From a virus (Duplodnaviria > Heunggongvirae > Uroviricota > Caudoviricetes), in the IMG/VR virus record IMGVR_UViG_2718217709_000004: a stretch of DNA of 23,245 nucleotides. One strand, written 5' to 3'. Position numbers and translations under genes: made by a program. The stretch's first letter is position 1. Every line of letters begins with the position of its first letter. The notes beneath the pieces were generated by a model. The model saw only the letters and a program-made list of their open reading frames with translations. It was not told where the DNA came from and did no database searches. Shown piece after piece: positions 1 through 17,842 of this stretch.

Positions 1-68
1 TCTCTTTTAACTGATTTGTTGTGCGAGCATTATGTGCAGTTAACGGCTCACTAGCTAGTGAGAGTTCC

Positions 69-103
69 AAAAAGAAACCCCGCAGTTTTTACGCTGCGGG
101 GTT
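69..103 (-). terminator. rho-independent terminator downstream of the hok-like gene
   Basis: GC-rich 10-bp stem aaccccgcag (76-85) / ctgcggggtt (94-103) with an 8-nt loop; on the minus strand it is followed by a T-rich run. Confidence 0.6.
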
Positions 104-189
104 GTTATTCATGCCTATGAGATAGGGTGCCTTATCGGCCTTACCCCGGCAACCGATTGACGGGGAGTTGCCTCCCCGTCGCGGTTTCC

Positions 190-330
190 TTACTGCTTAC
201 ACTGTAAGAACGCCGCAAACTCCGCTCCCCAGAAGCTCATCCGTATTTCACACAGCGAACCGTGCAGCATCCAGATGATGAGGATTACCGTCACGCAGAA
301 CGTGATGGCCGTAAGCGATTTTTGCGACAT
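190..330 (-). CDS. hok: Hok/Gef-family type I toxin-like membrane peptide (46 aa)
   Basis: Hand translation of the minus strand gives MSQKSLTAITFCVTVILIIWMLHGSLCEIRMSFWGAEFAAFLQCKQ: one hydrophobic helix, then the SLCE(I/L) motif and an AAFLxCK tail as in HokA. AAGGAG RBS lies 6 nt upstream inside an inverted repeat that could sequester it. Too short to appear in the ORF track. Confidence 0.7.
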   Translation of the reverse strand: MSQKSLTAITFCVTVILIIWMLHGSLCEIRMSFWGAEFAAFLQCKQ

Positions 331-519
331 AGCGCTTGCTCCTTTGTTGGAGAGGCGCTAACCTATCACTTGCTAGGTTGACGGGTTAGGGCCTCGGTTA
401 AACAGAAATGTTTTCCGGGGCCTTTCCACATCCGGCCTTCGGGTATTCCCTCCGACCATCAGCCGAAAGGCACCCGCACGTAATCTATCGCTTTTTTGTT
501 ACTCCGGCAATTCTGCCTG

Positions 520-780
520 TTAATTCTGAGGTAAAGGCAAGCTCATCTGATTGTTTCCCCTGTGTGAAGCTGGCAGTTCATGCCACGGGATACCTTCTGA
601 AGAGTGAACGCCGGAGGCGTGTTTCGATGTGAATTTATGGAAAGCTTCCAGTGTTGAGAAGCATACGCCGCATTCCAGGTTGTTACACTGGTAATACTTT
701 TGCCGCACGGTGTTTGAATCATTTTCCGGACGACTGGTGCGGATACGGGCAGATGCGCCACAAAGCGGACAACGGAACAT
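520..780 (-). CDS. ogr: Ogr/Delta-type zinc-finger late gene activator
   Basis: 86-aa ORF beginning MFRCPLCGASARIRTSR...YYQCNNLEC, matching the P2 Ogr pattern MFHCPLC...HQCQNVNC (CxxC...CxxxxC). GGAGG RBS upstream of the ATG. Confidence 0.85.
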   Translation of the reverse strand: MFRCPLCGASARIRTSRPENDSNTVRQKYYQCNNLECGVCFSTLEAFHKFTSKHASGVHSSEGIPWHELPASHRGNNQMSLPLPQN

Positions 781-822
781 AGCGACCTCCCTTAACGTGG
801 TGCTGCCGCTATTCTAAGTTGC

Positions 823-1932
823 TCACTCTGTTTCCGCTATCCATTCCGGGATTTTTGCCTCAAGCTCAAGCTGCGTGGTAAAGCCGCTGTTATCAATAGT
901 GTGCTCGGCTTTTGCAATGATCCAGTCCTGATTATCAATCTCGCTTTTAAATCCTGTTACCGTACCATGCATTTCGGGGTAGAGTTCTGCACGTCCACGC
1001 GCCAGCGTGATGGAGAATGATGCGGCTCCGCGTTGTAGCTGCTGCCACTTTGCCGCCGCTGCGCGTCTTGCTGCCTGTTCGTTCTGATAGGTCTTGCGTA
1101 ACACAAACACATTGCCTTCCGCGCCTTCCATATAATCACCTTCACGGCTGCTGCTTTTCTCCTTTTTGGGTTTTGGCGGTTTGCGGCGTTTCACGCTGAC
1201 TTTTTTCTTTTTCCCGTAATTAAGATCAAGCCAGTAAGCGCGTACCCCCGTATACGCTTCGCGGTCAGCAATGCGGAACTGATGGCGATCGCCACTGCTG
1301 CGCGTGATGGCGAACGAGGGCAACGGCTGGCCCTGTGCGTTCACGCCACCGCCTGGCATGATGAATAACAGATTACCGCTTTTTACCGTAGTGATTGCGC
1401 CCAGCATTTCCGCCATGCGCGTAAGGAAGGACATGTCGCTTTCTTCGGTCTGGTCGGCGTGGTCGATTTCGATATCCATCAGCATTTCGCTGATTTGCGG
1501 TTTCAGACCATACCGATGAGCGATGGCGGATACCACACGCTCAACGGTCACATCATGCCAGGACACCTCACGTTTAACGTTAAATTCATCCCGAAAATCT
1601 GCGCTTCTGGCTGAAACAGTCAGCCTGTCCGGCGGTCCTTCGTGAGCGATTTCATCAACAATGTAAGTGCCTTTTTCTGTCAGCGGTTCTCCCTTCCAGC
1701 CAATGAGAACCGTCAGGCGCGCGCCCCGTGGCGGTAGCTGCAACTGACCATCCGCATCATCCAGCGTGATGGTGAGCTGGTCCGCCTCAAATCCCCGGTT
1801 GTCGGTCAGTGACAGGCTCATCAGGCGCTCTGCCACGCCTGACAGCGTTTTACCCTCCGCGAGAATATCAAAATCCGGCATTTTTACGGGGTCTGTGCCC
1901 TGACTGAGCAATTGCATGGTGGTGTCGGTCAT
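823..1932 (-). CDS. D: P2 gpD-like tail protein (late control gene D)
   Basis: Contains the conserved RLMSLSLTDNRGFEADQL block typical of gpD. Start placed at MTDTTMQLL (ATG 1930-1932) because a GGGAGG RBS precedes it; the ORF-track start at 2064 would add an R/S/T-rich leader. An internal start at MPDFDIL is possible. Confidence 0.8.
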   Translation of the reverse strand: MTDTTMQLLSQGTDPVKMPDFDILAEGKTLSGVAERLMSLSLTDNRGFEADQLTITLDDADGQLQLPPRGARLTVLIGWKGEPLTEKGTYIVDEIAHEGPPDRLTVSARSADFRDEFNVKREVSWHDVTVERVVSAIAHRYGLKPQISEMLMDIEIDHADQTEESDMSFLTRMAEMLGAITTVKSGNLLFIMPGGGVNAQGQPLPSFAITRSSGDRHQFRIADREAYTGVRAYWLDLNYGKKKKVSVKRRKPPKPKKEKSSSREGDYMEGAEGNVFVLRKTYQNEQAARRAAAAKWQQLQRGAASFSITLARGRAELYPEMHGTVTGFKSEIDNQDWIIAKAEHTIDNSGFTTQLELEAKIPEWIAETE

Positions 1933-2089
1933 CTGCTCCCTCCCTGTGCGGCATGGTCGCATGTGCGTGCGGAGGGGGTTACTGCTTTTTGTTGTCGCCG
2001 TGGCGAGAGAACGGCGCAGGGGTGAGATTACGCGCGTGGTGGGTGATGATTGTTGCCGAATCATTTAACGGATACAAGGGGCTGAAGCT

Positions 2090-3274
2090 ATGAGTGAAAC
2101 TCGTTTTCATGGTGCCCGTGTTACGGAAAATACCGACCTGGTAACAGCGATTAACGATGTTGATTCCAGCGTTATCGGTATCGTGGCAACGGCGGATGAT
2201 GCGGACGCGAAGCTGTTCCCGCTGAACAAGCCCACACTGCTGACCCGCGTCAATGACGTGCTGGGAAAATGCGGGACAACGGGGACGCTTTATCGTGCGC
2301 TTAAGGCCATCGCAGACCAGGTGAGTACAAAGGTGATCGTCGTTCGCGTGGCTGAACACAAAGAAGAAGACGGAAAAACGCAGGATCAACTGGTTATCGG
2401 TGGTTCTGAATCTGACGGCAGCTATACGGGGATGTATGCGCTGCTTGTTGCAGAGCAGGATGAAAGCATCGGATACCGTCCGCGTATTCTGGCCGCGCCG
2501 GAGCTGGACACGGAGGCGGTAACAAAATCCCTGTGCGTGATTGCGGGTAAACTGCGCGCGTTTGTGTATGCCTCATGTCACGGCTGTAACACGATGGCTG
2601 AGGCGATTACCTACCGCCAGAAATTCAACGAACGTGAGGTGATGCTCTTATGGCCGGACTTCATCGCCTACAACCCGAAAAGTGGCAAAAACGAAACGTT
2701 CCCCGCGCCTGCCTATGCGTGCGGCCTTCGTGCGTACATTGACCATGAGCAGGGTTGGCACAAATCGCTGTCCAACGTTCCGGTTAAAAATGTGCTGGGG
2801 ATGTCCAGGCATGTGTTCTGGTCGTTGCAGGCCGAAGACAGTGATGCCAACAGCCTCAACAACAAAGAAATCACGACCATTATTCGTCGCAACGGGTTCC
2901 GCTTCTGGGGCAACCGCACACCGGAAACGAACGCCTACATCTTTGAGGTGTATACCCGAACCGCACAGGTGCTGGCTGATTCAATTGCGGAAGCGCAGTT
3001 TGAAACCATCGATAGTCCACTGACGCCTGCGAACGTGAAGGATGTTATCAGTGCCATCAGGGCAAAACTGGATTCACTGGTGACTGCCGGGAAACTGATT
3101 GGGGCGTCGTGCTGGTATGACGTGGTGGATAACAGCACCACGAATTTACGTCAGGGGCGTGTGCGTATTCGCTACAAATATACGCCCGTTCCTCCGCTGG
3201 AAGACATGGAGCTTTACCAGTCGTTTACTGATGAATTCTTTGGTCCCGCATTTGCGGTGCTGGGAGGTGCCTGA
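2090..3274 (+). CDS. FI: tail sheath protein (P2 gpFI-like)
   Basis: 394-aa ORF of P2 FI size, immediately followed by tube, chaperone and tape measure genes; the stop overlaps the FII start (ATGA). Confidence 0.85.
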   Translation: MSETRFHGARVTENTDLVTAINDVDSSVIGIVATADDADAKLFPLNKPTLLTRVNDVLGKCGTTGTLYRALKAIADQVSTKVIVVRVAEHKEEDGKTQDQLVIGGSESDGSYTGMYALLVAEQDESIGYRPRILAAPELDTEAVTKSLCVIAGKLRAFVYASCHGCNTMAEAITYRQKFNEREVMLLWPDFIAYNPKSGKNETFPAPAYACGLRAYIDHEQGWHKSLSNVPVKNVLGMSRHVFWSLQAEDSDANSLNNKEITTIIRRNGFRFWGNRTPETNAYIFEVYTRTAQVLADSIAEAQFETIDSPLTPANVKDVISAIRAKLDSLVTAGKLIGASCWYDVVDNSTTNLRQGRVRIRYKYTPVPPLEDMELYQSFTDEFFGPAFAVLGGA

Positions 3275-3786
3275 TGGCTGTACCAAAACATCTTCGCTTT
3301 TTTACGCTGTTTGTGGATGGTGAAAACGAAGTGGGTAAGGTGACGTCCGTCACCCTGCCTAAACTGACGCGCAAAACCGACAGCTACCGGGGTGGTGGCA
3401 TGATGGGTGCGGTAAGTATTGATCTCGGTCTGGACGACTCCGCGCTTGATGCGAGCTTTGTCATGGGGGGCGCAGTTCGTGAGCTGTTCCTTAAGTATGG
3501 CGGCACGATTGACGGCACGCTACTGCGTTTTGCGGGTGAATACTACACCGATGCAGAAAGCGACCTGTATGAAGTCGAAATGCGCGGACGCGTGACGGAA
3601 ATTGATATGGGGGAAGCCAAACAGGGCGAAGCCACATCACACACTTACGCCATTAAAAACACCTACTACAAGCTGAGTGTTAACGATCGTCCGTTGTGGG
3701 AGATTGACCTGCTGAACTTCATTTACCGGAAGGACGGCAAGGACATTGTGCCCGATCGCATCCGTTCCGCGCTTGGGCTTGGCTGA
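3274..3786 (+). CDS. FII: tail tube protein (P2 gpFII-like)
   Basis: 170-aa ORF translationally coupled to FI; size and position match gpFII. Confidence 0.85.
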   Translation: MAVPKHLRFFTLFVDGENEVGKVTSVTLPKLTRKTDSYRGGGMMGAVSIDLGLDDSALDASFVMGGAVRELFLKYGGTIDGTLLRFAGEYYTDAESDLYEVEMRGRVTEIDMGEAKQGEATSHTYAIKNTYYKLSVNDRPLWEIDLLNFIYRKDGKDIVPDRIRSALGLG

Positions 3787-3840
3787 TAAGTAATATGCAG
3801 GCGGCGCAGTGCGTCGCCTCTGACTGAAAGGAGTTTCCTG

Positions 3841-4206
3841 ATGAAAGAGACGAAAAACATCGATACCGAAAACACGGTAGTTGCTGACACTGTGAAAGAA
3901 ACCAGTGAGCGTGGCGTAAAACTTACCCAACCAATTGAGCGAGGCGGCGAAAAAATCACGTATGTGGAGATCACCGGGGCTATTGAGCAGGCTGGATCTC
4001 TGCGAGATTTGTCGCTGTCTGATGTGCTGAATCTGAAAGCGGAATCCATGTTTACGCTGCTGTCACGAGTGACATCACCGCGACTGGATGAAGTGACGAT
4101 CAAAAAAATGGCATCCCGTGACTTTATTCAGTTATGTGTGGTTGCCGTAAATTTTTTGAGCGGTGCGGACTCTGGCGGGAAGAACGAACAGGCGACGGAA
4201 GCCTGA
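3841..4206 (+). CDS. E: tail assembly chaperone (P2 gpE-like)
   Basis: 121-aa acidic protein between tube and tape measure genes; carries a slippery TTTTTTG near its 3' end. Confidence 0.8.
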   Translation: MKETKNIDTENTVVADTVKETSERGVKLTQPIERGGEKITYVEITGAIEQAGSLRDLSLSDVLNLKAESMFTLLSRVTSPRLDEVTIKKMASRDFIQLCVVAVNFLSGADSGGKNEQATEA

Positions 4207-4370
4207 TCACGGTTGTGTGCTTTGAGCACATAGAAGACTTTGTGGCAGATATTGCCGTTATTTTTAACTGGTCGCCCGCCGAAATCTTCATGATGACGCC
4301 CGGCGAAGTGGTTAGCTGGCGTGAGCGGGCGGCACTTCGCAGCGGGAATGCAGACAATGAAGACTCTTGA
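3841..4370 (+). CDS. E+E' frameshift product (programmed -1 frameshift)
   Basis: Slippery heptamer T TTT TTG at 4152-4158 in the E frame; the -1 frame stays open to 4370 (same frame as track ORF 4134..4370) and ends overlapping the T start. This is the conserved chaperone frameshift arrangement. Confidence 0.65.
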
Positions 4371-7164
4371 TATCCGGGTCGCTTTCAGCGCCGTTGACAG
4401 GCTGACCCAGCCTGCCGAAAACGCCCGCCGCCTGATGGGGCAGTTTGGTGACTCCATCCAGCGAACGCAGGGGGCGATCAAAAATCTCGAGCGTCAGGCG
4501 CGTTCATTTGAGCGCGCCCGCGACGCTGTCAGTAAAGCGGATGCGGGTATCGTGAAAGCACGACGCCAGCTTAACGCCCTTAATCAGTTACAACGCACGG
4601 GTACAGTGCTCAGCGAAAAACAACAAAAGCTGATGCAGCAGTTAAGCACCCGGCTTGAACGCCTGAATGAATCGCGCACGCGGGAAATTCAGAAAATGCG
4701 GGAGCTTGGCGGAGAGCTGAAACGCCACGGCATTTCCCTGACAGGCAGCGATAACACCATCCAGCAGGCCATCAGACGCACCGAACAGTACAACAATCAG
4801 CTTGAACGCGAACGGCAGGCGCTTGCGCGTGTAACGCGGGCGCGTGAGCGGTATTCGCGCGCGCAGGAAACAGCGGGAAAACTGAAAACAGGTGGTGCAC
4901 TGGCAATTGGTGCGGCAGCGGCGGGCGGCTATGCTGCCGGGCGTTTTTTGCAGCCTGCGATCGGGTTCGGGAAAGAGATGTCCCGCGTTCAGGCACTGAC
5001 GCGAATCGACCAGAACAGCCCGCAGTTTAAGGCGCTGCGTGAGCAGGCGTTAAAACTTGGCTCTGAAACGCAGTTCACCGCAGGCGATGCCGCCAGTGGG
5101 CAGGCATTTCTGGCAATGGCTGGCTTCACACCGCAGGCCATTCAGGCTGCGCTTCCCGGCGTGCTGAGCATGGCAACGGCTGGCGGTATGGACCTTGGCG
5201 AGACGGCAGATATTGGCTCAAATATCCTGACGCAGTTCGGCCTCTCCGCTGACCAGATGGACCGGGTCGGTGACACGCTTACAGCAGTGTTTACCCGTAC
5301 TAACACTGACCTTCGCGCACTGGGCGAAACCATGAAATATGCAGGTCCGGTGGCGGGTAAGCTGGGAATATCGCTGGAGCAGGCCGCAGCGATGGCGGGC
5401 GTGCTGGCGAATATGGGTATCAGAGGGAGTGATGCCGGGACGGCAATGCGTGCCAGCCTGGCTCGTCTGGCATCACCGCCAAAGGCGGCAGCAGAAGCGC
5501 TGAAAGAGCTGGGTGTGTCCGTCTCTGATGCGAACGGCAAAATGCGCCCGATGGAAGATGTGCTGGCCGACCTTTATAAAGCCACCCGTAAATACGGGGA
5601 AGTTGACCGGGTATCGTTCTTTAAGGACATTGCCGGGGAAGAGGCTTTCACGTCGTTTATGGCTCTCGTTGATGCGGCGGGTGACGGCTCCCTGCCCAAA
5701 CTGAGAAAAGAACTTGAGGGCGCACGCGGTGAGGCTGAACGCACGGCAAAGGTTATGGCCAATAACCTTGATGGCGACCTGAAATCACTCGGCAGTGCAT
5801 GGGAAGGGCTGCGTATCCGCATTGCAGATCTGATTGATGGTCCGCTGCGTTCTGTCACGCAGTGGCTCACGCGGGTGGTCTCAAAGGTGACGGCGCTGGC
5901 ACAGGCCCATCCGGTACTGACGCGCCAGTTACTGATAGCAGGCGGTGCGCTGCTGGCAATGACTGCAACGGTTGGCTCGTTGTCGCTGGTTATTGGAGTG
6001 CTTCACGGGAAGCTGGCCACGTTGCGTCTTGGTTTTTCTCTCCTGACCGGATCAATGAATGCTGTCAGGCTCCTGCCAGCACTATGGGGAATGGTGACGG
6101 GTTCCGTTTCGTTACTGGGGGGCGCTATCGGGGCGCTGTTCAGCCCGGTCGGATTGATTGCTGCTGCGTTTGTGGCTGCGGCAGTTCTCATCTGGAAATA
6201 CTGGGAACCCATCAAGGCGTTTTATGCCGGGGTGTTCAGCGGGATTATGGAGCGGCTGGCCCCGTTACGCGAAACCTTTGAACGGTTTGGTCCTGTTTTT
6301 GACGCAATCGGAAGCGGGATAAGTCAGGTGTTTAACTGGTTTAAATCGTTGCTGTCACCGATGGAGTCCAGCAAGGAAACGCTGGATAAATGTACCAGTG
6401 CTGGCGAGATATTCGGTAACGTTCTTGGCGGTGCGTTACAGCTTGTTCTGACGCCCGCAAAAATGTTGCTGGATACGCTGGCGTGGATACTTGAAAAACT
6501 CGGTGTGCTTCCGGATGAAGCGGAAAGGGCGAGAAAGAAAATCGAAGACGCACAGCGTGCGGCCATTCTTCAGGACAAGGTTGCTCTGTTTCAGGGAGAC
6601 ATTGCGAAAATCAATCCGCCGAAGTCTGCGGAAAATGGCAATGGCACCGGAGGTGATAAACCCAAAGACAATAAACCGCTCACAGACAGCAATACCGGTA
6701 CGCTACGCAGACTCAGCAAAATTGCTGATAACACAGGTAAGCTGGTTGATGAGACGAAAAAACGTATTGGCCCCGGCGATATTGTCTTTAAGAACCTGCC
6801 CCGCGCACTTGCCGTTCGTGGGGAGTGGCAGGAGCGGAAGATTGTGCAGGTCAGTAAGCCTGCCCCCGCAATTAATATCACACCCGTGGTCCCGGCTCCG
6901 CTGCCTCCGGCGCTGGTCCCTGTTGTTGCGGCCAGCTCCCGCCCGGTGGCGGAGGCCATACGATCTCCAGTGGCATCAGTTCCTGTAACTTCCCGTAACC
7001 GGGAGCCTGTTGCCTCCGGATTTGGTGGTGAAATTCATGTTCATCTGCATAACGTTGTTACGCAGAATCCCCGCGAACTGGCGAAACTGGTCGGTGAAAT
7101 GGTCAGGGCAGAAATGGAACGGCGCGCCCGTGCCGGGCGTGGCAGTTTTTACGATAAAGATTGA
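4357..7164 (+). CDS. T: tail tape measure protein (P2 gpT-like)
   Basis: Long ORF (about 940 aa) with an N-terminal coiled-coil region, central hydrophobic/Gly-Ala-rich segments and a Pro-rich C-terminus. Start is uncertain between 4321, 4348 and 4357; 4357 (MKTLDIRV) overlaps the E' stop. Confidence 0.85.
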   Translation: MKTLDIRVAFSAVDRLTQPAENARRLMGQFGDSIQRTQGAIKNLERQARSFERARDAVSKADAGIVKARRQLNALNQLQRTGTVLSEKQQKLMQQLSTRLERLNESRTREIQKMRELGGELKRHGISLTGSDNTIQQAIRRTEQYNNQLERERQALARVTRARERYSRAQETAGKLKTGGALAIGAAAAGGYAAGRFLQPAIGFGKEMSRVQALTRIDQNSPQFKALREQALKLGSETQFTAGDAASGQAFLAMAGFTPQAIQAALPGVLSMATAGGMDLGETADIGSNILTQFGLSADQMDRVGDTLTAVFTRTNTDLRALGETMKYAGPVAGKLGISLEQAAAMAGVLANMGIRGSDAGTAMRASLARLASPPKAAAEALKELGVSVSDANGKMRPMEDVLADLYKATRKYGEVDRVSFFKDIAGEEAFTSFMALVDAAGDGSLPKLRKELEGARGEAERTAKVMANNLDGDLKSLGSAWEGLRIRIADLIDGPLRSVTQWLTRVVSKVTALAQAHPVLTRQLLIAGGALLAMTATVGSLSLVIGVLHGKLATLRLGFSLLTGSMNAVRLLPALWGMVTGSVSLLGGAIGALFSPVGLIAAAFVAAAVLIWKYWEPIKAFYAGVFSGIMERLAPLRETFERFGPVFDAIGSGISQVFNWFKSLLSPMESSKETLDKCTSAGEIFGNVLGGALQLVLTPAKMLLDTLAWILEKLGVLPDEAERARKKIEDAQRAAILQDKVALFQGDIAKINPPKSAENGNGTGGDKPKDNKPLTDSNTGTLRRLSKIADNTGKLVDETKKRIGPGDIVFKNLPRALAVRGEWQERKIVQVSKPAPAINITPVVPAPLPPALVPVVAASSRPVAEAIRSPVASVPVTSRNREPVASGFGGEIHVHLHNVVTQNPRELAKLVGEMVRAEMERRARAGRGSFYDKD

Positions 7165-7176
7165 GGAGTCATGGCC

Positions 7177-7665
7177 ATGATGATGATCTACGGCATGTTT
7201 GTTTTTGAGCTGCGCACGCTGCCGCATCAGCAGTTACAGCAAAACAAAAGCTGGCGGCATGTGAAAAATGAACGCGTTAACCGTTCAGCAAGCTGGCAGT
7301 ATATCGGTGCAGGTGATGATCGCATCGTTCTTTCTGGTGTGCTTTATCCTGAAATTACAGGTGGCGAAGTGTCGCTGTCGCTGCTGACCACGCAGGCGTA
7401 TACAGGACGACCCTGGCCTTTGATTGATGGCGTCGGGCAGATTTACGGCATGTATGTCCTGACCGGAACGAACACGACCCGTTCCGAGTTTGATCGCTAC
7501 GGTAAGGCGAAAAAGATAGAATTTTCACTGACCCTTGAACGCTGTGATGAGGATTTGCGGGAGCGCCTGCAATCCTCATCGTTCAGCGATATGCTGTCCG
7601 GCTTCAAAGATAAAGTGACATCATCCCTTAACAGCGCGGCCAGTTCAGTTAAAGGGCTGTTCTGA
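7177..7665 (+). CDS. U: tail protein gpU-like
   Basis: Motifs VLSGVLYPEITGG and WPLIDG...IYGMYV parallel P2 gpU. Start chosen at the second or third ATG (7177) for spacing from the GAGGAG RBS at 7163-7168. Confidence 0.8.
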   Translation: MMMIYGMFVFELRTLPHQQLQQNKSWRHVKNERVNRSASWQYIGAGDDRIVLSGVLYPEITGGEVSLSLLTTQAYTGRPWPLIDGVGQIYGMYVLTGTNTTRSEFDRYGKAKKIEFSLTLERCDEDLRERLQSSSFSDMLSGFKDKVTSSLNSAASSVKGLF

Positions 7666-7682
7666 TTTAATGCTGGCCACTC

Positions 7683-7714
7683 ATACCTGGTAATAAGTGG
7701 CCAGTCTTAACACT
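7683..7714 (+). terminator. hairpin downstream of U (possible terminator)
   Basis: 9-bp stem ctggccact / agtggccag with a 14-nt loop; the downstream tract is only weakly T-rich. Confidence 0.35.
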
Positions 7715-7827
7715 CACCATTTGATTGCACCCGCGTTAACGATTTGTTACTGGGTATCAGACATGCTGGATAGCCAGTAGAAACATACCATTAAAATTAT
7801 TACAATAATTGGTCACATGATTATCTT

Positions 7828-8391
7828 ATGCTGAATAATAGAGATATGAATATTAATGAACTTAAAGACTGTATTCACTATGAAGTAATCGGTAGCGAGC
7901 GTCCTTTCTCCTGGCGAAAGGCAATTGTTCGCGCAATAAAACATAGAAGACTTCGTTATTTATTTTGGTGGCGCATAGCCAAATACCTTTTTGATAAAGG
8001 CGGATACTGCCGGAAGATTGCGGGGAAAATAGAACGTTTCATTCTTGATAAATATAATGTAACAGTCCCTTTAACTGTAAATATAGGGAAAGGCTTTGAT
8101 ATTTCTTATCTCAACAGTGTTGTTATCGGTCACAAAGTAACAATCGGTGAAAATTGTTCAATAAAACCGGGGGTAACTATTGGGCTACGTGGTGATTTTA
8201 ATGATATGGATATTGTTATAGGACATAATGTGACCATTGGTTGTAATGCCACCATTCTTGGTGGCAAAGTGCGTATAGGAAACAATGTCACAATAGGTGC
8301 TCATGCATTGGTATTGCATGATATTCCTGATGATTCAACATTCATCACTAAATTTCAGTCTGAAGTTATCTGCTCGTCCTCCCGCACATAA
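7828..8391 (+). CDS. hexapeptide-repeat (left-handed beta-helix) acetyltransferase, serine acetyltransferase/WcaB-like; cargo gene
   Basis: Repeated [LIV]-G-x-x-x-x hexads ([21 protein letters not shown]...[34 protein letters not shown]) and an N-terminal [13 protein letters not shown] segment typical of this acetyltransferase class. The region 7680-8400 is markedly AT-rich against GC-rich phage flanks. Start codon uncertain (7828 or 7846). Confidence 0.75.
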
Positions 8392-8972
8392 CCCTGATTC
8401 ATCAGCTCTGGCCATACGATATCCGGAGCTGTACTGGTGTCAATTCTACTCACTAATACTCTGTATTTTCTCCAGGAATCCAGTTGTGAATTTTCCTCGT
8501 TTGTTGCTATTTCAAGATTAACTGCATCCTGCAGAATTGCGATGTTATCTGTTGCCTCCTGGATCAACCTTGCCTTTTTCTCTTCCGCTTCCCGTATCCG
8601 AAACAGCTTTTCTGCTTCCTCATCCTTCACCCAGGATACGCCGTCCCACTTCTGATATTCCCCTGCTGGCGACAACCAGGTGACATTCTCTGGTAGCGGT
8701 CCGGGTTCAGAAATAAACAACGCGTCCCCCGATGCCACGTCATAGACCGTTTTACCACGATGGTCTTCAACAATATTCCACGATTCATTTTCACTGTTAA
8801 AAATTGCCACAAAGCCAGCAGGAATTTCCGGTGGGGCGATATCTGTAGAATTAGCTGGCAGCCCTGTATGAGGTGGAATATATGCGTCACCTTCACCAAT
8901 AAACTCATTAGTTCCGGCCAGCAGGTTATAAATTTTTACAGTACGTGATTGTTCACTCATTCTGAATGCCAT
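8355..8972 (-). CDS. G: tail fibre assembly chaperone (P2 gpG / Tfa-like)
   Basis: 205-aa ORF directly downstream of the tail fibre gene with the C-terminal [23 protein letters not shown] signature. Its last ~12 codons overlap the acetyltransferase gene in antisense. Confidence 0.8.
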
Positions 8973-11629
8973 TATGCAAGCCTCACAATATAATTAAATG
9001 CGATGTTTTTAACGGTGTTTTCCGCGTTACCAGCAGCGTTAACGGTGATGGTATGTCCATGTGAACCAATCGCAACAGAGTGCGTATGAGCGCCAATACC
9101 AACAGTGTGTGCATGTGCCCCAGCACTTGTAGCGGTACCTGATACTGAGTGGGTATGTGCGCCAGAAGAAGGCACAGTTCCATTCCCCACCACCGTGCCA
9201 CTTGATGCACCATCCAGCCAGTCGAAATTCATACCGCCACTGTTTGGTCTCCTTAATGGAACGGTATGAGTATGTGCGCCAGCACTATTTGCAGTACCAG
9301 ATACATTGTGGGTATGTGCACCTGTGTTATTCGTTGATTTAGTACCGTAATCAAACGAAGATGTGGTTTTCGTACCCAAATCCGTATTGGATGCGCTGGC
9401 GCTGTGGGTGTGCGATTTAATGCCATCCTGTTCCAGAGACAATACGTCCCGACCACTGGCGGGTTTGCCCTTGATTGTCCAGCCACGCATATCCGGGATC
9501 ACGCCTGACGGATAAGCGGCTGCAAGTTTCGGGTATGCAGATTTGTCAAAAGTCTGTCCCTGCATCAGGGCGTAACCAGACGGCACAGTATCTGATGGCC
9601 ACGGCAGCGGAACACCTGGCGGAAACGCTTCAATATTTGCCGAGCCGTCAAATTTTACGCCGTTAATTGTCCTTGCCGTTTTCAGCTTTGTTGCTGTAGC
9701 AGCATTGCCGGATAGTTCGCCTGAAAGACCACCGCTGAATGTCTGTTTCGCCGCCCATGTCTGAGCTTCGTCGATAATTGGCACACGTCTTGTCGTAATC
9801 GTGCGGCTTCCCGGATTTCCTGAAATGCGAACCATAAAAAAGCGGTAATTCGCTTTACTTACAGTGCTGCGCCATACATGCATTGAGCGCCCCGTACCAG
9901 AATCATCACTCGGACCAACTGCGATGTTTATCAGGTTGCCATCAATGACGCCCCAGTCCATACCGTCGGGAATATTGGTCATGTTATCAAGCCGAACGGT
10001 TATCAGACTGCCCGGCACAAAATCGTAGGTCTGCCAGTCCAGGCTGGTGAGTTTTGCCACTGCGCCACCGATACCCAGATTCAGGGGAAGTGAATAAGAT
10101 GTGTAAACTTCCCGCCATTCGCTCCACGAGCTGCCGGTATAAACGCGCTCAAACGTGCGACCTTTAAGGGTTGCACCTGTTCCGGCGGTTGTATAACGTT
10201 GCCATACGTTAACGCCATCAAAGCGCCTCAGCACTTCCAGAATACCGAGTACAGTCACGCCGTTTCCGTCCAGTATTGGACCATTGGTCGCTTTACCTGT
10301 AACGCTGTAAATACCTGGTGAGGTTACATCATTCAAATCACCGTCGTAATAACGGCTTTCTGACTGGTAGCCCACTCTTGACCACGGCTCCCATTGTGGG
10401 TTCTCTGCATCCCACGAGGCCGAAAGACAGCGAACATAAACATTTCCACGGCGGGTCGTGTAACGCTGCGTTCGCGAGTAACCACCACCTTCAAGAACTT
10501 CAAGGAGTCCCTGACCATAACTTCCTTCTTCCGGATAGTTGCGGTCAAATGAAGCGATTGAGCCACTACTGTTTCGCCATAAACCAAGATGCTCTGCGCC
10601 TCCGAGCGTGTTCAGGTCAATGGTTGTGCTCAGGGGGCGTGTTGCAGACTGAACCTGACGCCAGTAACTCCACGGACCGTCTGAACCATTCCATGTGCCA
10701 GAAAGGTTGCGCATATAAACATTGCCTGTTCTGGTGGTGTAACGCTGCATTCCTGCAAAATTACCGCCATTGAATACCTCCAGTACACCGACTGCACCGT
10801 CTTCAGGGAAATTTTTAGCAGCCGTCGCGTTAGTGGATGTAGCTTTAGACCAGACGCCAAGATAAGCCTTAACGGGACCAAATGTATTCAAGTCAGCATC
10901 AAGCGGCATTTCGCCATTGTTTTTCATAAACGTCAGGCTGGTAACGCCAACATTGTCCAGAAAAGCGCCCTTATCTGGAATATCGTCACCGTTCTGGTCT
11001 TTCTGCATACGTTTTTCAGCATTGTCATAGGCTGCTTTTACTGCCTTTGGCGTTGCCGCCAGCTCTTCACTGGTGCTGTTTGTTGCGCTACTTAACTGAG
11101 TAAAACCTTTTTCTGTCAGCGTGGCGTCAGGATGGCGGCGGGATTGCTCATGCTCTGCGATTTTGTCATCGACGTAATCCTGCGTCGCCATCACTGTGCT
11201 GGCATCAATACTCAGCTCAACGGACGCTACGTTGCTGACAGTAATAACCATGCGGCAGGTCTGCGCGCGCCCGGAGCCTTCAGCGAGTTCAGGCTTATAG
11301 CTTTCCGCCATGTTAGCGACCGCAATCAGTGTTCCGGCATCGTCATACAGACCCAGCTCACGCATCCAGAAGCCGCCCACTTCTGGCGGTACAACCAGTT
11401 CAGCCACGATATAGTTTTTATTCTTGTTATCCACGCTGACTTTATTCAGAGCGTGACGCCAGACCTCATGCACCAGTTTCGTCTGACCGGCATCCGGCAC
11501 CGGCAATTTGCCATTACCGTCACCCACGGCCATTGCAGACAGAGTTACTTTTTTCCCGCCGGGGACAGTGGCGGCTGCCAGCTTCGCGGCTCCGGCAGTA
11601 GTGATAGCGGTTTTAAATTTCGTGCTCAT
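8972..11629 (-). CDS. H: tail fibre protein (P2 gpH-like)
   Basis: 885-aa ORF with a conserved P2-type N-terminal region, three internal repeat units (QRYTTRxGNVY...W..W) and a C-terminal region with iterated GAHTHxV HxH motifs, followed by a Tfa gene. Confidence 0.85.
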
Positions 11630-11639
11630 TGTTTCTCAC

Positions 11640-12167
11640 TTATCCGGGATAAACAGTAATAACATCACCATCACAGACCACACCGCCTGTATACAGATAG
11701 CCGGGAATGTCCTGGATAATGTTCAGGCCGATAAGGTGGCGACTTGCGGGTTTGGCATCGGCAATCAGCCGTTCCATTTCCAGATACATTTCCTCGGTCA
11801 CACCACTGTCCAGCGTGCCAACATCAACCTTGAATGTTCCGGGTTCGCCGTCGAACTCCCACCACTCAGACACGCGAATGAGGTATCCCAGCGGCTCAAT
11901 GGCCCGGCGCAGTGCGCTGATGGTCCCTTTGTGTCGGTGTATCAGCCATGCATCACGAATAACCTGTCGCTTTGTCTCTTCCGGCCAGTTGCGATCCCAG
12001 CGGTCAACGGAAAATGCCCAGGCGAGATAAGGCAGCAGATGCACCGGGCAGGTGTCCGGTGACCACAGCGTGTTGAGGTCTACCGGGATGTTTGTAATGC
12101 GCGCTCCGACAGCTTCGGCGCAACGCATGAAATTGCTGGCTGATGGTGGTAACAGTGAATTACTCAT
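11640..12167 (-). CDS. I: baseplate assembly protein gpI-like
   Basis: 175 aa from MSNSLLPP; the ATG overlaps the stop of the upstream J fragment. Size and position match gpI. Confidence 0.8.
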   Translation of the reverse strand: MSNSLLPPSASNFMRCAEAVGARITNIPVDLNTLWSPDTCPVHLLPYLAWAFSVDRWDRNWPEETKRQVIRDAWLIHRHKGTISALRRAIEPLGYLIRVSEWWEFDGEPGTFKVDVGTLDSGVTEEMYLEMERLIADAKPASRHLIGLNIIQDIPGYLYTGGVVCDGDVITVYPG

Positions 12168-12474
12168 TACGCCCACCTTCGCTGATGGTGAATGACTCAC
12201 AGCGCGCCGCCTGTATGTCGCTGATGGCCATATTCTGTGTGGGTTCGATTATCTCCACGCGTTGCACACCGTGCACATGCAGTGCGGCAGCAATGGCGGA
12301 CAACGCCACGTCCTGACCGATAAGCCCCTGCTCAGCCAGCCACTTCCTGAACGACGATTCAGCCGCAGCCAGAATAGGTTCGGATTCCGGGCCGGGATAA
12401 AAGTACAGTTTTGCATTCAGCCGCCATGTCACGATTCTGGCGCTCTGACGGGCATGGCGAGAGATAGTGCTCAA
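12160..12474 (-). pseudogene. J: baseplate gpJ C-terminal fragment (5'-truncated)
   Basis: Only about 100 codons remain of a ~300-aa protein (...ILAAAESSFRKWLAEQGLIGQDVALSAIAAALHVHGVQRVEIIEP...). No J N-terminus, W, V, S or R genes lie upstream. Confidence 0.7.
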
Positions 12475-12619
12475 CGTTCACGCGGGCAGCGTAAACATCC
12501 GGGTTGAAGTTCTCGGCGGCTTCACGCAGATGTACCGGGCTGATTTCGCGGCCATCAACAGTTGATCCGGAGACAGCCACGCGAAACTTTTTGCGGGATG
12601 TCTTTTTTTCATTAGCCAT
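12359..12619 (-). pseudogene. O: capsid scaffold gpO N-terminal fragment fused out of frame to the J remnant
   Basis: MANEKKTSRKKFRVAVSGSTVDGREISPVHLREAAENFNPDVYAARVNVEHY parallels the P2 gpO N-terminus; GAGGGG RBS upstream. After about 50 codons the frame runs through J-derived sequence and stops at 12359. Confidence 0.7.
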
Positions 12620-12773
12620 AGTTTTTGCCCCTCTGACTGGTTCTTCAGTCATGATGGCAAAGCGTAACAGGCTGATACAAAGGGCTTTTGTTGTAAGAAA
12701 ACGGCCAGAACAGGGGGTTAAGGAGAACGGTTTCGCGCGCGGGTAATCTTCCTGTAATTACTCAGGGGGAGCA

Positions 12774-14036
12774 ATGATTCAGGACGCTTTTGTGCGCCAG
12801 CGTGCGCGGCAACTTTACTGGCAGGGTTATCCGCCCGCAGAAATATCACGTCTGATGGGAATAAACCCGAACACGATTTATGCGTGGAAAAAACGCGACC
12901 AGTGGGATGAAACGCCCCCCGTGCAGCGTGTCACGCAGTCCATCGATGCGCGCCTCATCCAGCTTACTGAAAAACAGAATAAAACAGGCGGTGACTTTAA
13001 GGAAATAGACCTGCTGACCCGGCAGCTTAAAAAGCTGCATGATGGCCAGCCGGATGTGATGGCCGCAGGAAAGAAAGGCCGGGCGAAAAAACTTAAAAAT
13101 CATTTCACGCCGGAACAGATTGCCGCACTGCGGGAAAAAATCATCAGCAGGCTGGAGTGGCATCAGCGGGGCTGGTTTGACTCCCTGACACTTTGCAGGG
13201 AAGCCGGGATACGTAACAGGATGATCCTGAAATCCCGACAGATTGGGGCGACCTGGTATTTTGCACAGGAAGCTCTGCTGATGGCGCTGCGTGACGATGT
13301 GGCGCAACCTTACCAGCGTAACCAGATTTTTTTGTCTGCGTCGCGTCGTCAGGCGTTCCAGTTTAAAAGCATTATTCAGAAGGTCGCGGCTGAAGTTGAT
13401 GTGGAGCTGAAAGGGGGCGATAAAATCATCCTCTCCAACGGCGCAGAGCTGCATTTTCTCGGCACTTCTGCTGCGTCGGCACAGTCCTATACGGGCAATT
13501 TTTATTTTGATGAATTTTTCTGGGTCAGTCGCTTTGCTGAACTGCGCAAGGTGGCTGGCGCTATGGCAACCCTCAGCGGACTGCGGCGCACCTACTTCTC
13601 CACGCCATCCACCGAAACGCACGAGGCGTACGCCTACTGGAACGGCGACCGCTGGAACGAGAAAAAGGCCTCGCATAAACGCCAGCGTTTTTCTGTGGAC
13701 TGGAAAACGCTGCATAACGGGCTTATCTGCCCTGACCGGACTTGGCGGCAAATTGTCACGCTGGAAGATGTGGTTAATCACGGCTGGAAACACACCGATA
13801 TCGACGAAATTCGTGATGAAAACACCGAAGACGAGTTCCTCAATCTCTATATGTGTGAGTTTGTCCGCGAAGGGGAATCGGCATTTAACCTGAATATCCT
13901 GATTGGCTGCGGTGTTGACGGATACGACGACTGGAAAGACTGGAAACCTTTTGCTCCCCGCCCGATGGGGAATCGTCCGGTATGGATTGGGTATGACGCA
14001 AACGGCAGCAGTGGCAACGGCGACATGCCAGCTTGA
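12774..14036 (+). pseudogene. P: terminase large (ATPase) subunit gpP, 3'-truncated
   Basis: N-terminal two-thirds of a P2-type large terminase (MIQDAFVRQRARQLYWQGYPPAEISRLMGINPNTIYAWKKRDQWDE...). The ORF ends at 420 aa and the A gene stop is only about 110 bp away, so no portal Q or cos can follow. Confidence 0.8.
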
Positions 14037-14101
14037 TGTTGGTGGAGCCGTCGTCGATACAAATTTTCATGTCGCTTTTCCTTATGTTGATTAATTAATC
14101 G

Positions 14102-14137
14102 TTTACGGGATTCTGAAATCCCGTTTTTGCCTGTTTT
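14102..14137. repeat. hairpin-containing direct repeat, copy 1 (intergenic, P remnant / A junction)
   Basis: tttacgggattctgaaatcccgtttttgcctgtttt: 7-bp stem acgggat / atcccgt followed by a T-run, acting as a plus-strand terminator-like element. Confidence 0.6.
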
Positions 14138-14146
14138 ATGCGCGCT

Positions 14147-16969
14147 TCATATATCGCGGCGCGTTTTTTGCTCATTTACGGGATTTGTGAATCCCGTTTC
14201 TGTCTGTTTTTTGTTTCCACTGGTCAGGCCACCCCGCAGCAGGTCTGCTTTGCGGTGGGCGCGTTCAGTTGTTTCACTGATTCTCTGTGCGTGCTCTGCG
14301 TCGCGGATGGCGCGCAGCATGTCAGAAAGTACGGTAACGGGTGTTTTCATGGTGTTCTGGTCTTGCTGAAGTGTGGATGCCAGGCGTGCGGCGGCTTCAT
14401 GGTCTGATGCCCTTAGTTGTTCCAGATAGCCGGCGACCGGGTTATGGCGGATCTCCGTGCTGCTTACGCCGTGATTACGGCTCAGGCGCTGCCAGAGCTG
14501 CGTGATTCGGCTGTCCGGGCGGGTATCCGGTTTGCGTACAATTTCAAATCCCTGCGGTGCAATGATGCTGCCGTCAACGTACAGGCTGCCGCCCCGTAAC
14601 AGGTGCTGCATCTGCTGTTCACCGATATGCAGGCCGAGAGATTCGGCAGATTCCCGCCATTCTTTAGCGAGTAATTCGTGGTTATCAGGCAAAGGCCGCT
14701 GCTGTTTGCGGCTCTGTGTCCAGCTCTGCATTTCATCACTGCTGTTTTTTGCCTGTTTGTCACGCAGCGAACGCATCAGCGCCCGGCGTTCGTGCCGTTT
14801 CAGTGAGCGCATCCAGTCATCCACATCAACGCCGTCAGGAAGCTGCGGCCACAGTGCTGGCCGTTCTTCCGGCTGTTCTGTCCCGTTGTTGTCCGTTTCC
14901 TGTACACGGGGACAGTTATTGCCACGAGTCCAAGGGGCGGCAGGGCCGCCCTGAAGGTCAAAACCATTTTCGTGGGCGTTGTCTTCCGGTTCTGGTTTAC
15001 GTCTTACCAGCTTCCAGTTATCCGGATGCGTGCACACACGGGAGGATTCCCCGATGAGTGGTGACCAGATCCCGTAAATCTGTACGCTCTGTTCGCCGTA
15101 ATCGTTCAGCTCATCTGCGAGGTCGTAGGCGGTGCGAATCAGGTAGTCCTTGCGTGGAACAAGCACGCCACCCTGTTTTTCAATGTAGGTGGCAAAACAC
15201 CCGGCATCGGCGGCAGCGAGTACCGCATCCATTGCATCATCTTTCAGCCGTTGCGGGCCTTCCGGATTGCGTGCCATCTGGCTGGCAAGGCGGCGCAGTT
15301 CACGCCACACCTGACGGGAGGGGATGCCAAAGAACTGGAACTGACGGACCCGGTGAAGGCGCGCCCAGCCGATGGCGCGCTCCACGCTCTCGGCCATTGA
15401 TTTTCCGGTTTCGTGGTCAACGCGTGGCTTGCCCGTTTTCGGGTCGATGCCATCCACGGCGCGGCTGTCCAGGTTCTTTCCGATGTAGGTGGCGATGTAG
15501 CTGGTTGGTGTGCCTTTTGAGCCGTCGACATACTCCGCCTTAAAACGCGGAGTTATGTCATCGCCCAGCTCGTGGCGGTCCTCCTGAATGGCAATATCGC
15601 AGACGTGGGACACGATGGTTTCAATCTCGTCCGGATGTGCAAAGACCATCATATGCCAGTGCACAGTGCCGTCATGGTGAGGCTCCACCGTGCGGATGCC
15701 ATACCAGCGCAGGCCGTCGCGGTTCAGTTTTTTGCGGACCGCCGCAAAAAACGTGTTAACCAGGTAATCGCTGGAGTCGCGCATGGTGGCCCCGTTCCAT
15801 TTGGGGTTCGGATGACCGTTCTCCGTTGTTGCGTGGTATTTTGACGGGCAGGTGACGGTCAGAAACACCGCTCTGTCGCCACGGGCTTCGGCCAGAAGTT
15901 CCAGTCCCTTCATGGTGGCCATCATTTCTGCCTTACGGTGAACCGGGTTACTTACTCCCGCGTAATACACCGTCTCGAGATCAATCGTGAACCCGTCTTC
16001 ATTTTCCAGCATGAAACTTTTCAGGAAATCGCGTGTTTTCTCGCGCTGTGCGCGAAACTCGCTTAACGCGTCCTGGCTCAGATAGGGGGATGTTTTTCTG
16101 GAAACCAGACAGGCGGCGCGGAGTTGTTCTTCCCGCCACTCACAACGTAACAGCCACAGTTTGCGTTTCCACCATTCCGCACAGGTCAGGCGAAGGATTG
16201 CGCCCGGCAGCAGCTCCGTGTCCGGTTCGTTCCTCCGGTCTTTGTCTGTTGTCAGTGCGTCATAATGTGGAGGCATGGCGTGCAGGTGTAACGCCATGCG
16301 GGCCAGCATCTGATAAGCCTTCAGCGTTACATCCATGGTCAGCTCGCCATCAGTCGCGCCAAAGCCATCGCAGAGTTTTTCGAAGGTGCTGCTGAACATC
16401 GCCGCCGTCATGGTGGCCAGCGTCTGTATCTGGTGTTTGTTGAGCTGCGGCAGGTAAAGCAAATCATCCAGGCGTTCGCGTCCGGCAAGGGAGCGATAAC
16501 CCGGTGTCAGCCAGCGGTGGTCGGTGCGGTCCAGACGTTCGAATATTTTGCGCAGGGTTCCGCACGCGTAGCGTTCAGCCTGCCAGCTCTTGTTGCCTTT
16601 CCGGCGATCGGCTTCCTGTTTTTTGCGCAGGAAGGAGAGGTGGCGAATAAGCGGATCGCGCAGATAGGACGGCAGCAGGCGCAGCGAGGCCATGGCTTCA
16701 TCCACCGCGCCACGTGCCTGTTTTCTGGCGTCTCCTGCCAGTGTGATGGTTTTGTCCTGTTTTTCCTGTGCGTCCAGGCTTTTATTAATCAGGTTGCCCA
16801 GCGGCGTGGCGGAGAACGCCGCATCAGCCATTTCCTGGCGGCGCTCGTTCTCTGCCCGGTAGGCATCCAGCCAGGAGGAAAGCGCGGATTCAGGAGCGGG
16901 GATCCCCGTTCCTTCACGCCCCACTGCGTGGCGCGGTTGTTGCCAGTCCCTGATGTACTCTGCCGTCAT
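14147..16969 (-). CDS. A: replication initiation endonuclease gpA (rolling-circle initiator)
   Basis: 940-aa ORF with the conserved YGIRTVEPHHDGTVHWHMMVF and YIATYIGKN catalytic-region motifs of P2/186 A proteins. It is longer than P2 A, so the C-terminal extension may be junction-derived. Confidence 0.85.
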   Translation of the reverse strand: MTAEYIRDWQQPRHAVGREGTGIPAPESALSSWLDAYRAENERRQEMADAAFSATPLGNLINKSLDAQEKQDKTITLAGDARKQARGAVDEAMASLRLLPSYLRDPLIRHLSFLRKKQEADRRKGNKSWQAERYACGTLRKIFERLDRTDHRWLTPGYRSLAGRERLDDLLYLPQLNKHQIQTLATMTAAMFSSTFEKLCDGFGATDGELTMDVTLKAYQMLARMALHLHAMPPHYDALTTDKDRRNEPDTELLPGAILRLTCAEWWKRKLWLLRCEWREEQLRAACLVSRKTSPYLSQDALSEFRAQREKTRDFLKSFMLENEDGFTIDLETVYYAGVSNPVHRKAEMMATMKGLELLAEARGDRAVFLTVTCPSKYHATTENGHPNPKWNGATMRDSSDYLVNTFFAAVRKKLNRDGLRWYGIRTVEPHHDGTVHWHMMVFAHPDEIETIVSHVCDIAIQEDRHELGDDITPRFKAEYVDGSKGTPTSYIATYIGKNLDSRAVDGIDPKTGKPRVDHETGKSMAESVERAIGWARLHRVRQFQFFGIPSRQVWRELRRLASQMARNPEGPQRLKDDAMDAVLAAADAGCFATYIEKQGGVLVPRKDYLIRTAYDLADELNDYGEQSVQIYGIWSPLIGESSRVCTHPDNWKLVRRKPEPEDNAHENGFDLQGGPAAPWTRGNNCPRVQETDNNGTEQPEERPALWPQLPDGVDVDDWMRSLKRHERRALMRSLRDKQAKNSSDEMQSWTQSRKQQRPLPDNHELLAKEWRESAESLGLHIGEQQMQHLLRGGSLYVDGSIIAPQGFEIVRKPDTRPDSRITQLWQRLSRNHGVSSTEIRHNPVAGYLEQLRASDHEAAARLASTLQQDQNTMKTPVTVLSDMLRAIRDAEHAQRISETTERAHRKADLLRGGLTSGNKKQTETGFTNPVNEQKTRRDI
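14175..14210. repeat. hairpin-containing direct repeat, copy 2 (inside the 3' end of A)
   Basis: tttacgggatttgtgaatcccgtttctgtctgtttt: same stem as copy 1 with a different loop, about 29/36 nt identical. It encodes the last residues of the A ORF (TETGFTNPVNEQK). Confidence 0.6.
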
Positions 16970-16975
16970 AGTGAT

Positions 16976-17341
16976 TTACTTCGTCATGCCATTCAGGGTG
17001 TCGCGGCAGACTGTAGCCAGCCGCTGAATTTCCAGCACGGTGTCTTCTGTGTCGGCATGGCGATGTGTGATGCGGATGCTGTCGGCAATCACATCGACGA
17101 TTGCAGAGGATGGGCGCTGGTAAATGCCAATAACGGACGGGGTGCCACCTTCAATGCGGTAAAGCCTGTAATTTCCCTCGTGGCTGTCAATCATGTAGCG
17201 ACCATCAATAACAATCTTTCCGTCAGCGAGCTGCGGTACAGGCAGGGATTTCAGGTACATGTCATAACGATCACGCACGCGAGCGGCAAGATCTCGTTCT
17301 GTGTTGAGCAGGTATTCAAGAAAGTCGTTGGCGAGAATCAT
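16976..17341 (-). CDS. hypothetical early protein (121 aa) immediately upstream of A
   Basis: Intact ORF whose stop lies 6 nt before the A start; family not recognised. Confidence 0.5.
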   Translation of the reverse strand: MILANDFLEYLLNTERDLAARVRDRYDMYLKSLPVPQLADGKIVIDGRYMIDSHEGNYRLYRIEGGTPSVIGIYQRPSSAIVDVIADSIRITHRHADTEDTVLEIQRLATVCRDTLNGMTK

Positions 17342-17413
17342 TGCGGCAATCCTCTTGTTACAGATGTGCGAAGGCCTCCCGCCGCAAGGTGCAGGAAAGG
17401 CCCGGAACAGGAA

Positions 17414-17644
17414 TTAATGGAGTTTGTTTTGCTGCTGGATGAGCTGTTGAAGCTCGTGCAGATCATCCGCCAGATAGCTGAAAACAGAGGCGGAATAAAT
17501 GTTTGATAGTGCGTGGCTGCGCTCATGCAGCATATTGATGTGCATGATTTGCGCGACGCGTGATGCGCGGGAAAGTCTGTGGTTGATTTCAGTCTGGATG
17601 TGACGACGCTCCGCGATAGTGCGGTGCTGTTTGCGGTCTGCCAT
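17414..17644 (-). CDS. hypothetical small early protein (76 aa)
   Basis: AAGAGG RBS about 7 nt upstream of the ATG; charged, helix-rich sequence; preceded by a structured leader. Confidence 0.5.
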   Translation of the reverse strand: MADRKQHRTIAERRHIQTEINHRLSRASRVAQIMHINMLHERSHALSNIYSASVFSYLADDLHELQQLIQQQNKLH

Positions 17645-17819: not shown

Positions 17820-17842
17820 GCACAAAAAAACCGCTTGCGCGG
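17820..17842 (-). terminator. rho-independent terminator within the early region (minus strand)
   Basis: On the minus strand: aaccgc-gcaa-gcggtt stem-loop (GNRA-type loop) followed by a run of seven T. Confidence 0.5.

Follow-up and report, generated by a model that had tools for sequence, protein, structure and literature searches.

Is a reversed block of tail genes in a P2-like prophage a local accident, or is it the way in which the phage is built? The question is raised by the IMG/VR virus record IMGVR_UViG_2718217709_000004, a stretch of 23,245 nucleotides which we refer to as the window and which is, on sequence grounds, a decaying P88-like prophage (Xuanwuvirus, Peduoviridae) of Escherichia coli. 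In the window, the tail genes from FI to U lie on the plus strand, while D and ogr on one side and the tail fibre genes on the other lie on the minus strand. We are highly confident that this orientation is the normal architecture of the P88-like lineage, most likely derived from one ancient inversion that became fixed, and that it is neither a local rearrangement, nor a misassembly, nor a programmed segment.

Gene identities were obtained from the listing of open reading frames (ORFs) and from family profile searches (Pfam, PHROG) of the window ORFs. Each gene gave a strong match to a known family. PGAP denotes annotation by the NCBI Prokaryotic Genome Annotation Pipeline. Late genes lie mostly on the minus strand of this P2-related prophage. 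The reversed block and its neighbours are the following:

520-780, minus strand: ogr, the late-gene activator, with a zinc finger CX2C-X24-CX4C (Pfam Ogr_Delta, E 5e-14; 36% identity to P2 Ogr)
823-1932, minus strand: D, tail/baseplate hub of 369 amino acids (phrog_52, E 3e-167; Pfam Phage_GPD)
1933-2089, no strand: divergent D-FI intergenic region of 157 bp, proposed bidirectional late promoter region
2090-3274, plus strand: FI, tail sheath (phrog_23, E 6.5e-126; 98% identity to P88 FI, 45% to P2 FI)
3274-3786, plus strand: FII, tail tube (phrog_55, E 8e-60; PGAP 'phage major tail tube protein')
3841-4206 and 4215-4370, plus strand: E and E', tail assembly chaperone pair (phrog_103; PGAP 'tail protein' and 'GpE family phage tail protein' in strain E8)
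4321-7164 as longest ORF, with the PGAP and P88-equivalent start at 4357, plus strand: T, tape measure (phrog_28, E 1.8e-213)
7171-7665, plus strand: U, tail protein and last gene of the plus-strand block (Pfam Phage_P2_GpU, E 1.5e-38; 100% amino acid identity to P88 U)
7828-8391, plus strand: cargo gene, hexapeptide-repeat acyl/acetyltransferase of 187 amino acids (Pfam Hexapep, E 1e-12; phrog_2154)
8355-8972, minus strand: G, tail fibre assembly (Pfam Caudo_TAP, E 1.6e-39; phrog_105)
8972-11629, minus strand: H, tail fibre (phrog_295, phrog_381)
11640-12200, with the PGAP-equivalent start at 12167, minus strand: I, baseplate/tail protein (phrog_48, E 5e-93; 68% identity to P2 I)

The longest ORF of D extends to 2064. 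A GGGAGG ribosome-binding site precedes the start at 1932, which is also the one annotated by PGAP in strain E8. The D protein is 97% identical to D of P88 and 48% identical to D of P2; its gene is transcribed away from FI, with ogr 42 nucleotides downstream. For FII, the phrog_55 library label is 'head closure', as against the tail tube of PGAP. The coordinates and strands that an earlier, sequence-only reading had assigned to ogr, D, FI-U and G/H/I proved accurate in the ORF listing and the family searches.

Compared with P2 (Peduovirus), the block is indeed inverted. The window shares its gene set with P2, the proteins being 36-68% identical, and both have an Ogr activator and divergent promoters for O and P. 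The P2 record, as annotated, puts I, H, G, FI, FII, E, T, U, D and ogr on a single strand (plus), with FI to D given as one operon from the promoter pF. A tblastn strand table places FI and U of the window on the strand opposite to D, ogr, G and I, while P2 is collinear. It had been proposed that FI-U (2090-7665, plus) is inverted with respect to P2, against ogr/D (520-1932, minus) and G/H/I (8355-12167, minus), and both the P2 record and the strand table bear this out. Nor does D close the FI operon any longer; it now diverges from that operon and stands alone with ogr, and G does converge on the cargo gene, their 3' ends overlapping by 37 bp. The single operon of the P2 type (FI-U-D on the same strand as V-G and ogr) is thus absent from the window. 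According to the tblastn table and the P88 annotation, the window has the P88-type arrangement, in which ogr-D diverges from FI-U and FI-U converges on G-H-I.

The same arrangement is found in intact relatives. In the RefSeq record of P88 the order is V-W-J-I-H-G (plus), G'-H' (minus), DNA invertase (plus), U-T-E'-E-FII-FI (minus) and D (plus), a relative layout equal to that of the window. Window positions 69-7670 align collinearly and in one piece with P88 at 96.8% identity, the D|FI junction included. When window 400-9100 was compared with phage genomes by megablast, query positions 1-7271 (window 400-7670) aligned as a single piece at 95-97.5% identity with P88, PhiR44_2, Citrobacter phage phiSM and others, covering ogr, D, the D|FI junction and FI-U; P88 and its relatives (Xuanwuvirus; PhiR44_2, phiSM, P884B11) share the order and strands of ogr-D-FI-FII-E-T-U. 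P88, obtained by induction of E. coli K88, is able to lyse many strains of E. coli (PMC6456863), and phiSM is described as spontaneously active (PMC5285337). The layout is therefore one of working phages.

A more sensitive search restricted to the junction (window 1250-2800) recovered the divergent D|FI junction at 66-71% DNA identity in Serratia phage KSP20, in Klebsiella phages of the genera Reipivirus and Reginaelenavirus and in Salmonella phage SEN5 (Senquatrovirus), whereas records of Peduovirus, among them P2, WPhi and L-413C, aligned with just one half of the searched sequence. The layout is consequently seen in four genera of the ICTV virus taxonomy, namely Xuanwuvirus, Reipivirus, Senquatrovirus and Reginaelenavirus, as well as in KSP20. 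Reipivirus, Reginaelenavirus, Senquatrovirus (SEN4/SEN5) and KSP20 share with the window the inverted FI-U, a similar length of the D-FI spacer and the position of its dyad (see below). They differ in protein identity (55-75%), in the cargo between U and the fibre genes and in their hosts.

Gene order was then compared in 80 Enterobacterales loci obtained from an alignment of the D protein, with flanks of 10 kb, by locating FI, FII, U, ogr and I in each of them. Where D is nearest to that of the window (61-99% identity), FI stands directly upstream on the opposite strand in all 61 classifiable loci, and one further, degraded locus is consistent with the divergent order. These 61 loci span more than 25 Enterobacterales genera, including Salmonella, Serratia, Erwinia, Pantoea, Klebsiella, Enterobacter, Xenorhabdus, Photorhabdus, Providencia, Yersinia, Morganella and Hafnia. 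Where D is nearest to that of P2, U is directly followed by D on the same strand (18 of 18 loci). The clade of the D sequence and the gene order agree without exception across the 80 loci.

Complete E. coli genomes give the same picture. Of 5426 such genomes, 1115 contain a 1551-bp sequence across the D|FI junction without interruption. The opposite order was represented by an artificial collinear junction, D 1250-1950 joined to the reverse complement of 6990-7690; its halves always match separately, and none of the 5426 genomes carries them in one place. Since the D|FI junction occurs in 1115 genomes and the U-D junction in none, there is no sign of the canonical order, of flipping or of misassembly. 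The collinear order with these genes, which a synteny comparison with related genomes might have revealed, was not found at the U-D junction of the E. coli genomes. The idea of an anomaly, or of an event at this locus requiring a check at the level of reads, is not supported either, given an identical order in P88, in other genera, in 61 of 61 loci and in 1115 of 5426 genomes. The order is already known as data, being present in deposited annotations and in about one fifth of complete E. coli genomes. We did not find an explicit description of the inversion in the literature searched on P88, SEN4/SEN5 and Xuanwuvirus. We also observed a P88-like prophage, with proteins 96-100% identical to those of the E. 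coli one, in contig NZ_JBQPOM010000071.1, labelled Vagococcus sp. WN89Y; this is a Gram-positive genus, and the contig is most likely a contamination or a mislabelled assembly.

These data leave little room for the other explanations of the reversed block. That an assembler misplaced the orientation of FI-U is an idea which arose from the difference to P2 and for which we found no support. Several complete E. coli chromosomes that were assembled independently, one of them of type O6:H16, contain the entire window at 100% identity, and the D|FI junction recurs in the 1115 complete genomes and in independently sequenced phages with the alternative junction in none, so we give an artefact practically no credit. 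A recent inversion of this locus, as part of the decay of a defective prophage, would fit with the fact that the element is rearranged elsewhere, by a 7.3-kb deletion that joins O to J and a 4.4-kb deletion that joins P to A, and that an insertion sequence, IS1, lies in the cargo gene of a sister strain. Yet the near-intact prophage of strain 631, which lacks such deletions, and P88 have FI-U in the same orientation, and so do phages outside Xuanwuvirus at 55-70% protein identity. We consider a recent event extremely improbable, and we conclude that the decay does not concern the orientation of FI-U.

A programmed segment, inverted by a serine invertase of the Gin/Hin/Cin type, is nearly as hard to sustain and in our view very unlikely. 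P88 does carry an invertase gene directly beside the end of U, so that one of the ancestral breakpoints adjoins the invertase locus. However, that invertase is placed to flip the neighbouring G'/H' cassettes and not FI-U. No invertase was found among the window ORFs examined, the gene beside U being the hexapeptide transferase, and the two junctions show no inverted-repeat crossover sites. Moreover, only one orientation occurs in the 5426 E. coli genomes and in the 61 related loci. With an ancient, fixed inversion as the preferred explanation, two considerations weigh on the other side. The genome sample consists of the 80 loci most similar to the query alignment, and the single event is presumed on the basis of the perfect agreement between D similarity and gene order.

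According to this explanation, one ancient inversion with breakpoints upstream of pF and between U and D would have become fixed, leaving pF-FI-FII-E-T-U opposite to D-ogr and V-W-J-I-H-G throughout the lineage. Since pF would have moved together with FI, the left breakpoint would have to lie upstream of that promoter. For the right one, U and D overlap by one base in P2, and the first ~18 residues of D of the window do not align with P2 D, which is consistent with a breakpoint between the two genes. The homology with P88 ends at 7670, five bases past the stop codon of U. As had been claimed, there are no inverted repeats between the breakpoints. The best reverse-complement match between 1880-2140 and 7600-8420 scored 10, a chance level (mean of shuffled sequences 8.65, with 19 of 100 shuffles as high), and none of the 25 longest inverted repeats of the window spans the junctions. 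Repeats are not expected at the junctions after this much divergence. A 23-nucleotide inverted repeat, 83% complementary, has its first arm shortly before the cargo gene and its second within that gene (7799-7821 and 8225-8247); it is probably due to chance.

If the block was inverted, how is D expressed? The sequence-only reading had worried that D is separated from its promoter. This is probably answered by the D-FI spacer, where a conserved dyad is flanked by sequences resembling -10 hexamers. P2 late promoters have the consensus TGT-N12-ACA (PMC3931495). In the P2 record, activator sites are centred 55-59 nucleotides from mapped transcription starts, and the divergent promoters pP and pO have a single activator site, centred 55-56 nucleotides from each start. 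The corresponding elements of the window are:

1993-2010, no strand: Ogr-type activator dyad TGTCGCCGTGGCGAGAGA, TGT-N12-AGA, with one mismatch to TGT-N12-ACA
2045-2050, plus strand: predicted -10 hexamer of FI (pF-like), GATGAT, with a predicted start near 2057
1953-1958, minus strand: predicted -10 hexamer of D, GACCAT, with a presumed start near 1946
12692-12709 (extended motif 12688-12711), no strand: second copy of the dyad, in the O-P divergent spacer, counterpart of the shared site of P2 pP/pO

The centre of the D-FI dyad is 88.5 nucleotides upstream of the FI ATG and 69.5 nucleotides from the D ATG; in P2, the TGT-N12-ACA-type site of pF is 83 nucleotides upstream of FI. An extended motif, TTGTTGT-N12-AGAAC, is found at 1989-2012 in the D-FI spacer. 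It has exactly two unmismatched copies in the window and two in P88, each between divergent late genes. The simple consensus is not informative across the window, where perfect TGT-N12-ACA has four matches, none of them in the D-FI spacer, and where the number of matches with one mismatch equals chance. It is the position of the dyad and its conservation in relatives that make it convincing, rather than a window-wide motif search. The dyad is conserved in a spacer alignment of six phages (four ICTV genera and the unassigned KSP20), and it is a perfect TGT-N12-ACA in KSP20, Reginaelenavirus and SEN5. With zero or one mismatch, it is present in 44 of 47 related loci at 74.5-88.5 nucleotides upstream of the FI ATG, and about half of these sites are perfect.

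We aligned 44 distinct spacer sequences on the centre of the dyad. On the FI side, a conserved GAttAT appears at +43.5 to +48.5, and the distance of the FI hexamer, taken with its predicted start, fits a site at about -55 as in the annotated P2 late promoters. At the mirror offset, -48.5 to -43.5, the minus-strand consensus is AAnCAT, the columns at -48.5 (A), -47.5 (T) and -44.5 (T) being conserved. The predicted D start would fall about 13-14 nucleotides upstream of the D ATG, just before the GGGAGG ribosome-binding site. A CA-GCGCGCG block between the dyad and the predicted D hexamer (window 1960-1973, -41 to -30 from the dyad) is strongly conserved as well. A similar CGCGCGC run precedes the predicted -10 hexamer of P (window 12734-12742) and occurs on the P side of the P2 pP/pO site.

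The geometry of the D-FI spacer copies that of pP/pO, where one dyad stands between divergent late genes with the starts ~55 nucleotides from its centre. The spacer has such a dyad with mirror hexamers. The two cases differ in that the starts of pP and pO come from experimental mapping and are given in the P2 record, while those of D and FI are predicted only. On the strength of the shared geometry, D, and probably ogr, would be transcribed from a late promoter that shares the activator site of pF, a proposal we favour with modest confidence. The inversion would have carried pF along, putting a dyad-symmetric Ogr-binding site back to back with D. From a single position, a symmetric site of this kind could drive promoters on both sides, as is annotated for pP/pO in P2; D, and with it probably ogr, would be transcribed leftwards from the mirror-image promoter and FI-U rightwards. 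We lean slightly towards a further step, namely that the inversion created a fifth late unit (D, perhaps D-ogr) on the pF dyad, with the D-FI spacer as a second bidirectional late promoter besides pP/pO, and that this reuse of a symmetric site made a 5.6-kb inversion in an essential operon viable and able to be fixed in a large clade of Enterobacterales phages. A description of a shared D/FI promoter or of a fifth late unit was not found in the literature searched.

Several points count against a shared promoter. The D promoter is a predicted one, the dyad of the window has one mismatch (AGA for ACA), the predicted D -10 hexamer GACCAT is weak and the predicted D leader would be only ~13 nucleotides long. 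A less probable course, in our view, is that the order is lineage-wide as described and that D-ogr is transcribed from an ordinary sigma-70 or early promoter, or that the conserved block on the left of the spacer has another role. The weakness of the D hexamer would be accounted for in this way, and ogr of P2 has its own activator-independent promoter. A simple scan for sigma-70 promoters gave no hit in either direction of the D-FI spacer; this fits too, though the same is expected of activator-dependent promoters, for which such a null result is uninformative. On the other hand, the left half of the spacer is conserved at fixed distances from the dyad in the 44 sequences and mirrors the FI side. 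D is, besides, a structural late protein needed together with FI-U, and P2 pP/pO offers the precedent of one site serving two divergent late promoters.

At the other end of the block, the FI-U and V-G operons now converge, with variable cargo sitting between their ends. This U-G slot is the counterpart of the Z/fun slot of P2, which lies between G and FI. It holds the hexapeptide transferase in the window and in strain 631, an invertase with alternative G'/H' tail-fibre cassettes in P88, a DUF262 protein with another ORF in a Klebsiella Reipivirus phage, and almost nothing in SEN5. The cargo gene of the window has a low GC content, about 40% in the GC profile. Its size (187 amino acids) and position had suggested an invertase, a candidate rejected by the Pfam match to a hexapeptide transferase. 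A homologue is called serine acetyltransferase in one phage record, and PGAP names fragments of it wcaB-like and DapH/GlmU-related. The gene could serve in surface-polysaccharide modification (lysogenic conversion).

The remaining features of the prophage lie outside the inverted block or at its edge:

190-330, minus strand: hok/gef toxin gene of 46 amino acids (Pfam HOK_GEF, E 3.7e-7; annotated as Hok/Gef family protein in strains 631 and E8)
7672-7705, plus strand: hairpin with a 10-bp stem just past U (fold -19.8 kcal/mol, z -2.1), without a clear T-tract
12774-14036, plus strand: terminase gene P, truncated
14147-16969, minus strand: replication gene A, followed by the early genes
22244-23245, plus strand: integrase, at the right edge of the window

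The hairpin is a possible end of the FI-U transcript. The hok/gef gene marks the attR-proximal end of the prophage, outside the inverted block, and its position between ogr and the prophage end is common to the window, P88 and strain 631.

In addition to the region 69-7670, the window matches P88 at 97.8% identity (12441-14025) and at 96.5% (14024-17948); the two also have in common the O-P region, replication gene A and early genes. Fibre genes and some early genes differ from P88 or match it at 80-91%; H and G are of a different fibre type, and the transferase takes the place of the invertase and fibre cassettes. Compared with P88, the window is without ~11.6 kb, namely a stretch from part of J to most of O, and the C-terminal portion of P together with Q and the par genes. 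The near-intact reference for these losses is the prophage of strain 631, between a tRNA-Leu gene and yecA. With respect to it, a deletion of 7.3 kb has removed the N-terminal part of J, the C-terminal part of O and everything between them, so that beyond I what is left of J, a C-terminal fragment, is fused to the N-terminal remainder of the scaffold gene O; at the joint (12441-12447) the flanking alignments overlap by 7 bp. A second deletion, of 4.4 kb, runs from the C-terminal part of P through parM, with its joint at 14024/14025, where the truncated P meets the sequence upstream of A, and includes the portal gene. Because capsid, lysis and baseplate genes are lost, the element cannot make particles.

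The retained parts clearly belong to the P88-like group. The ICTV genus criterion, about 70% identity, refers to the full length of a genome, of which a deleted prophage keeps only a part. The strain 631 prophage has a 1.8-kb insert between ogr and D with a gene for a 'YecA family protein' (locus 2571-3710), and its D is annotated as an ORF of 801 nucleotides only (locus 4110-4910), although tblastn aligns all 369 residues at 99.7%. In the sister strain E8 the P-A joint is the same, a smaller V-N deletion falls within the O-J deletion of the window, and IS1 lies inside the transferase gene (in E8 locus coordinates, IS1/cargo region 10346-11668 and V-N deletion 16684-17329). The window and E8 appear to be different decay stages of one element.

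In summary, the reversed FI-U block has little weight as a discovery, and it carries a caution for annotation: not all P2-like prophages should be annotated on the P2 template. Since about one fifth of complete E. coli genomes have the P88-type order, differences from the P2 map should not be taken as evidence of rearrangement or misassembly. The remaining point of interest is the predicted bidirectional late promoter between D and FI. Its biological interest is modest and regulatory, in that an operon split by an inversion apparently persisted because the P2-type activator site is symmetric and may serve both directions.

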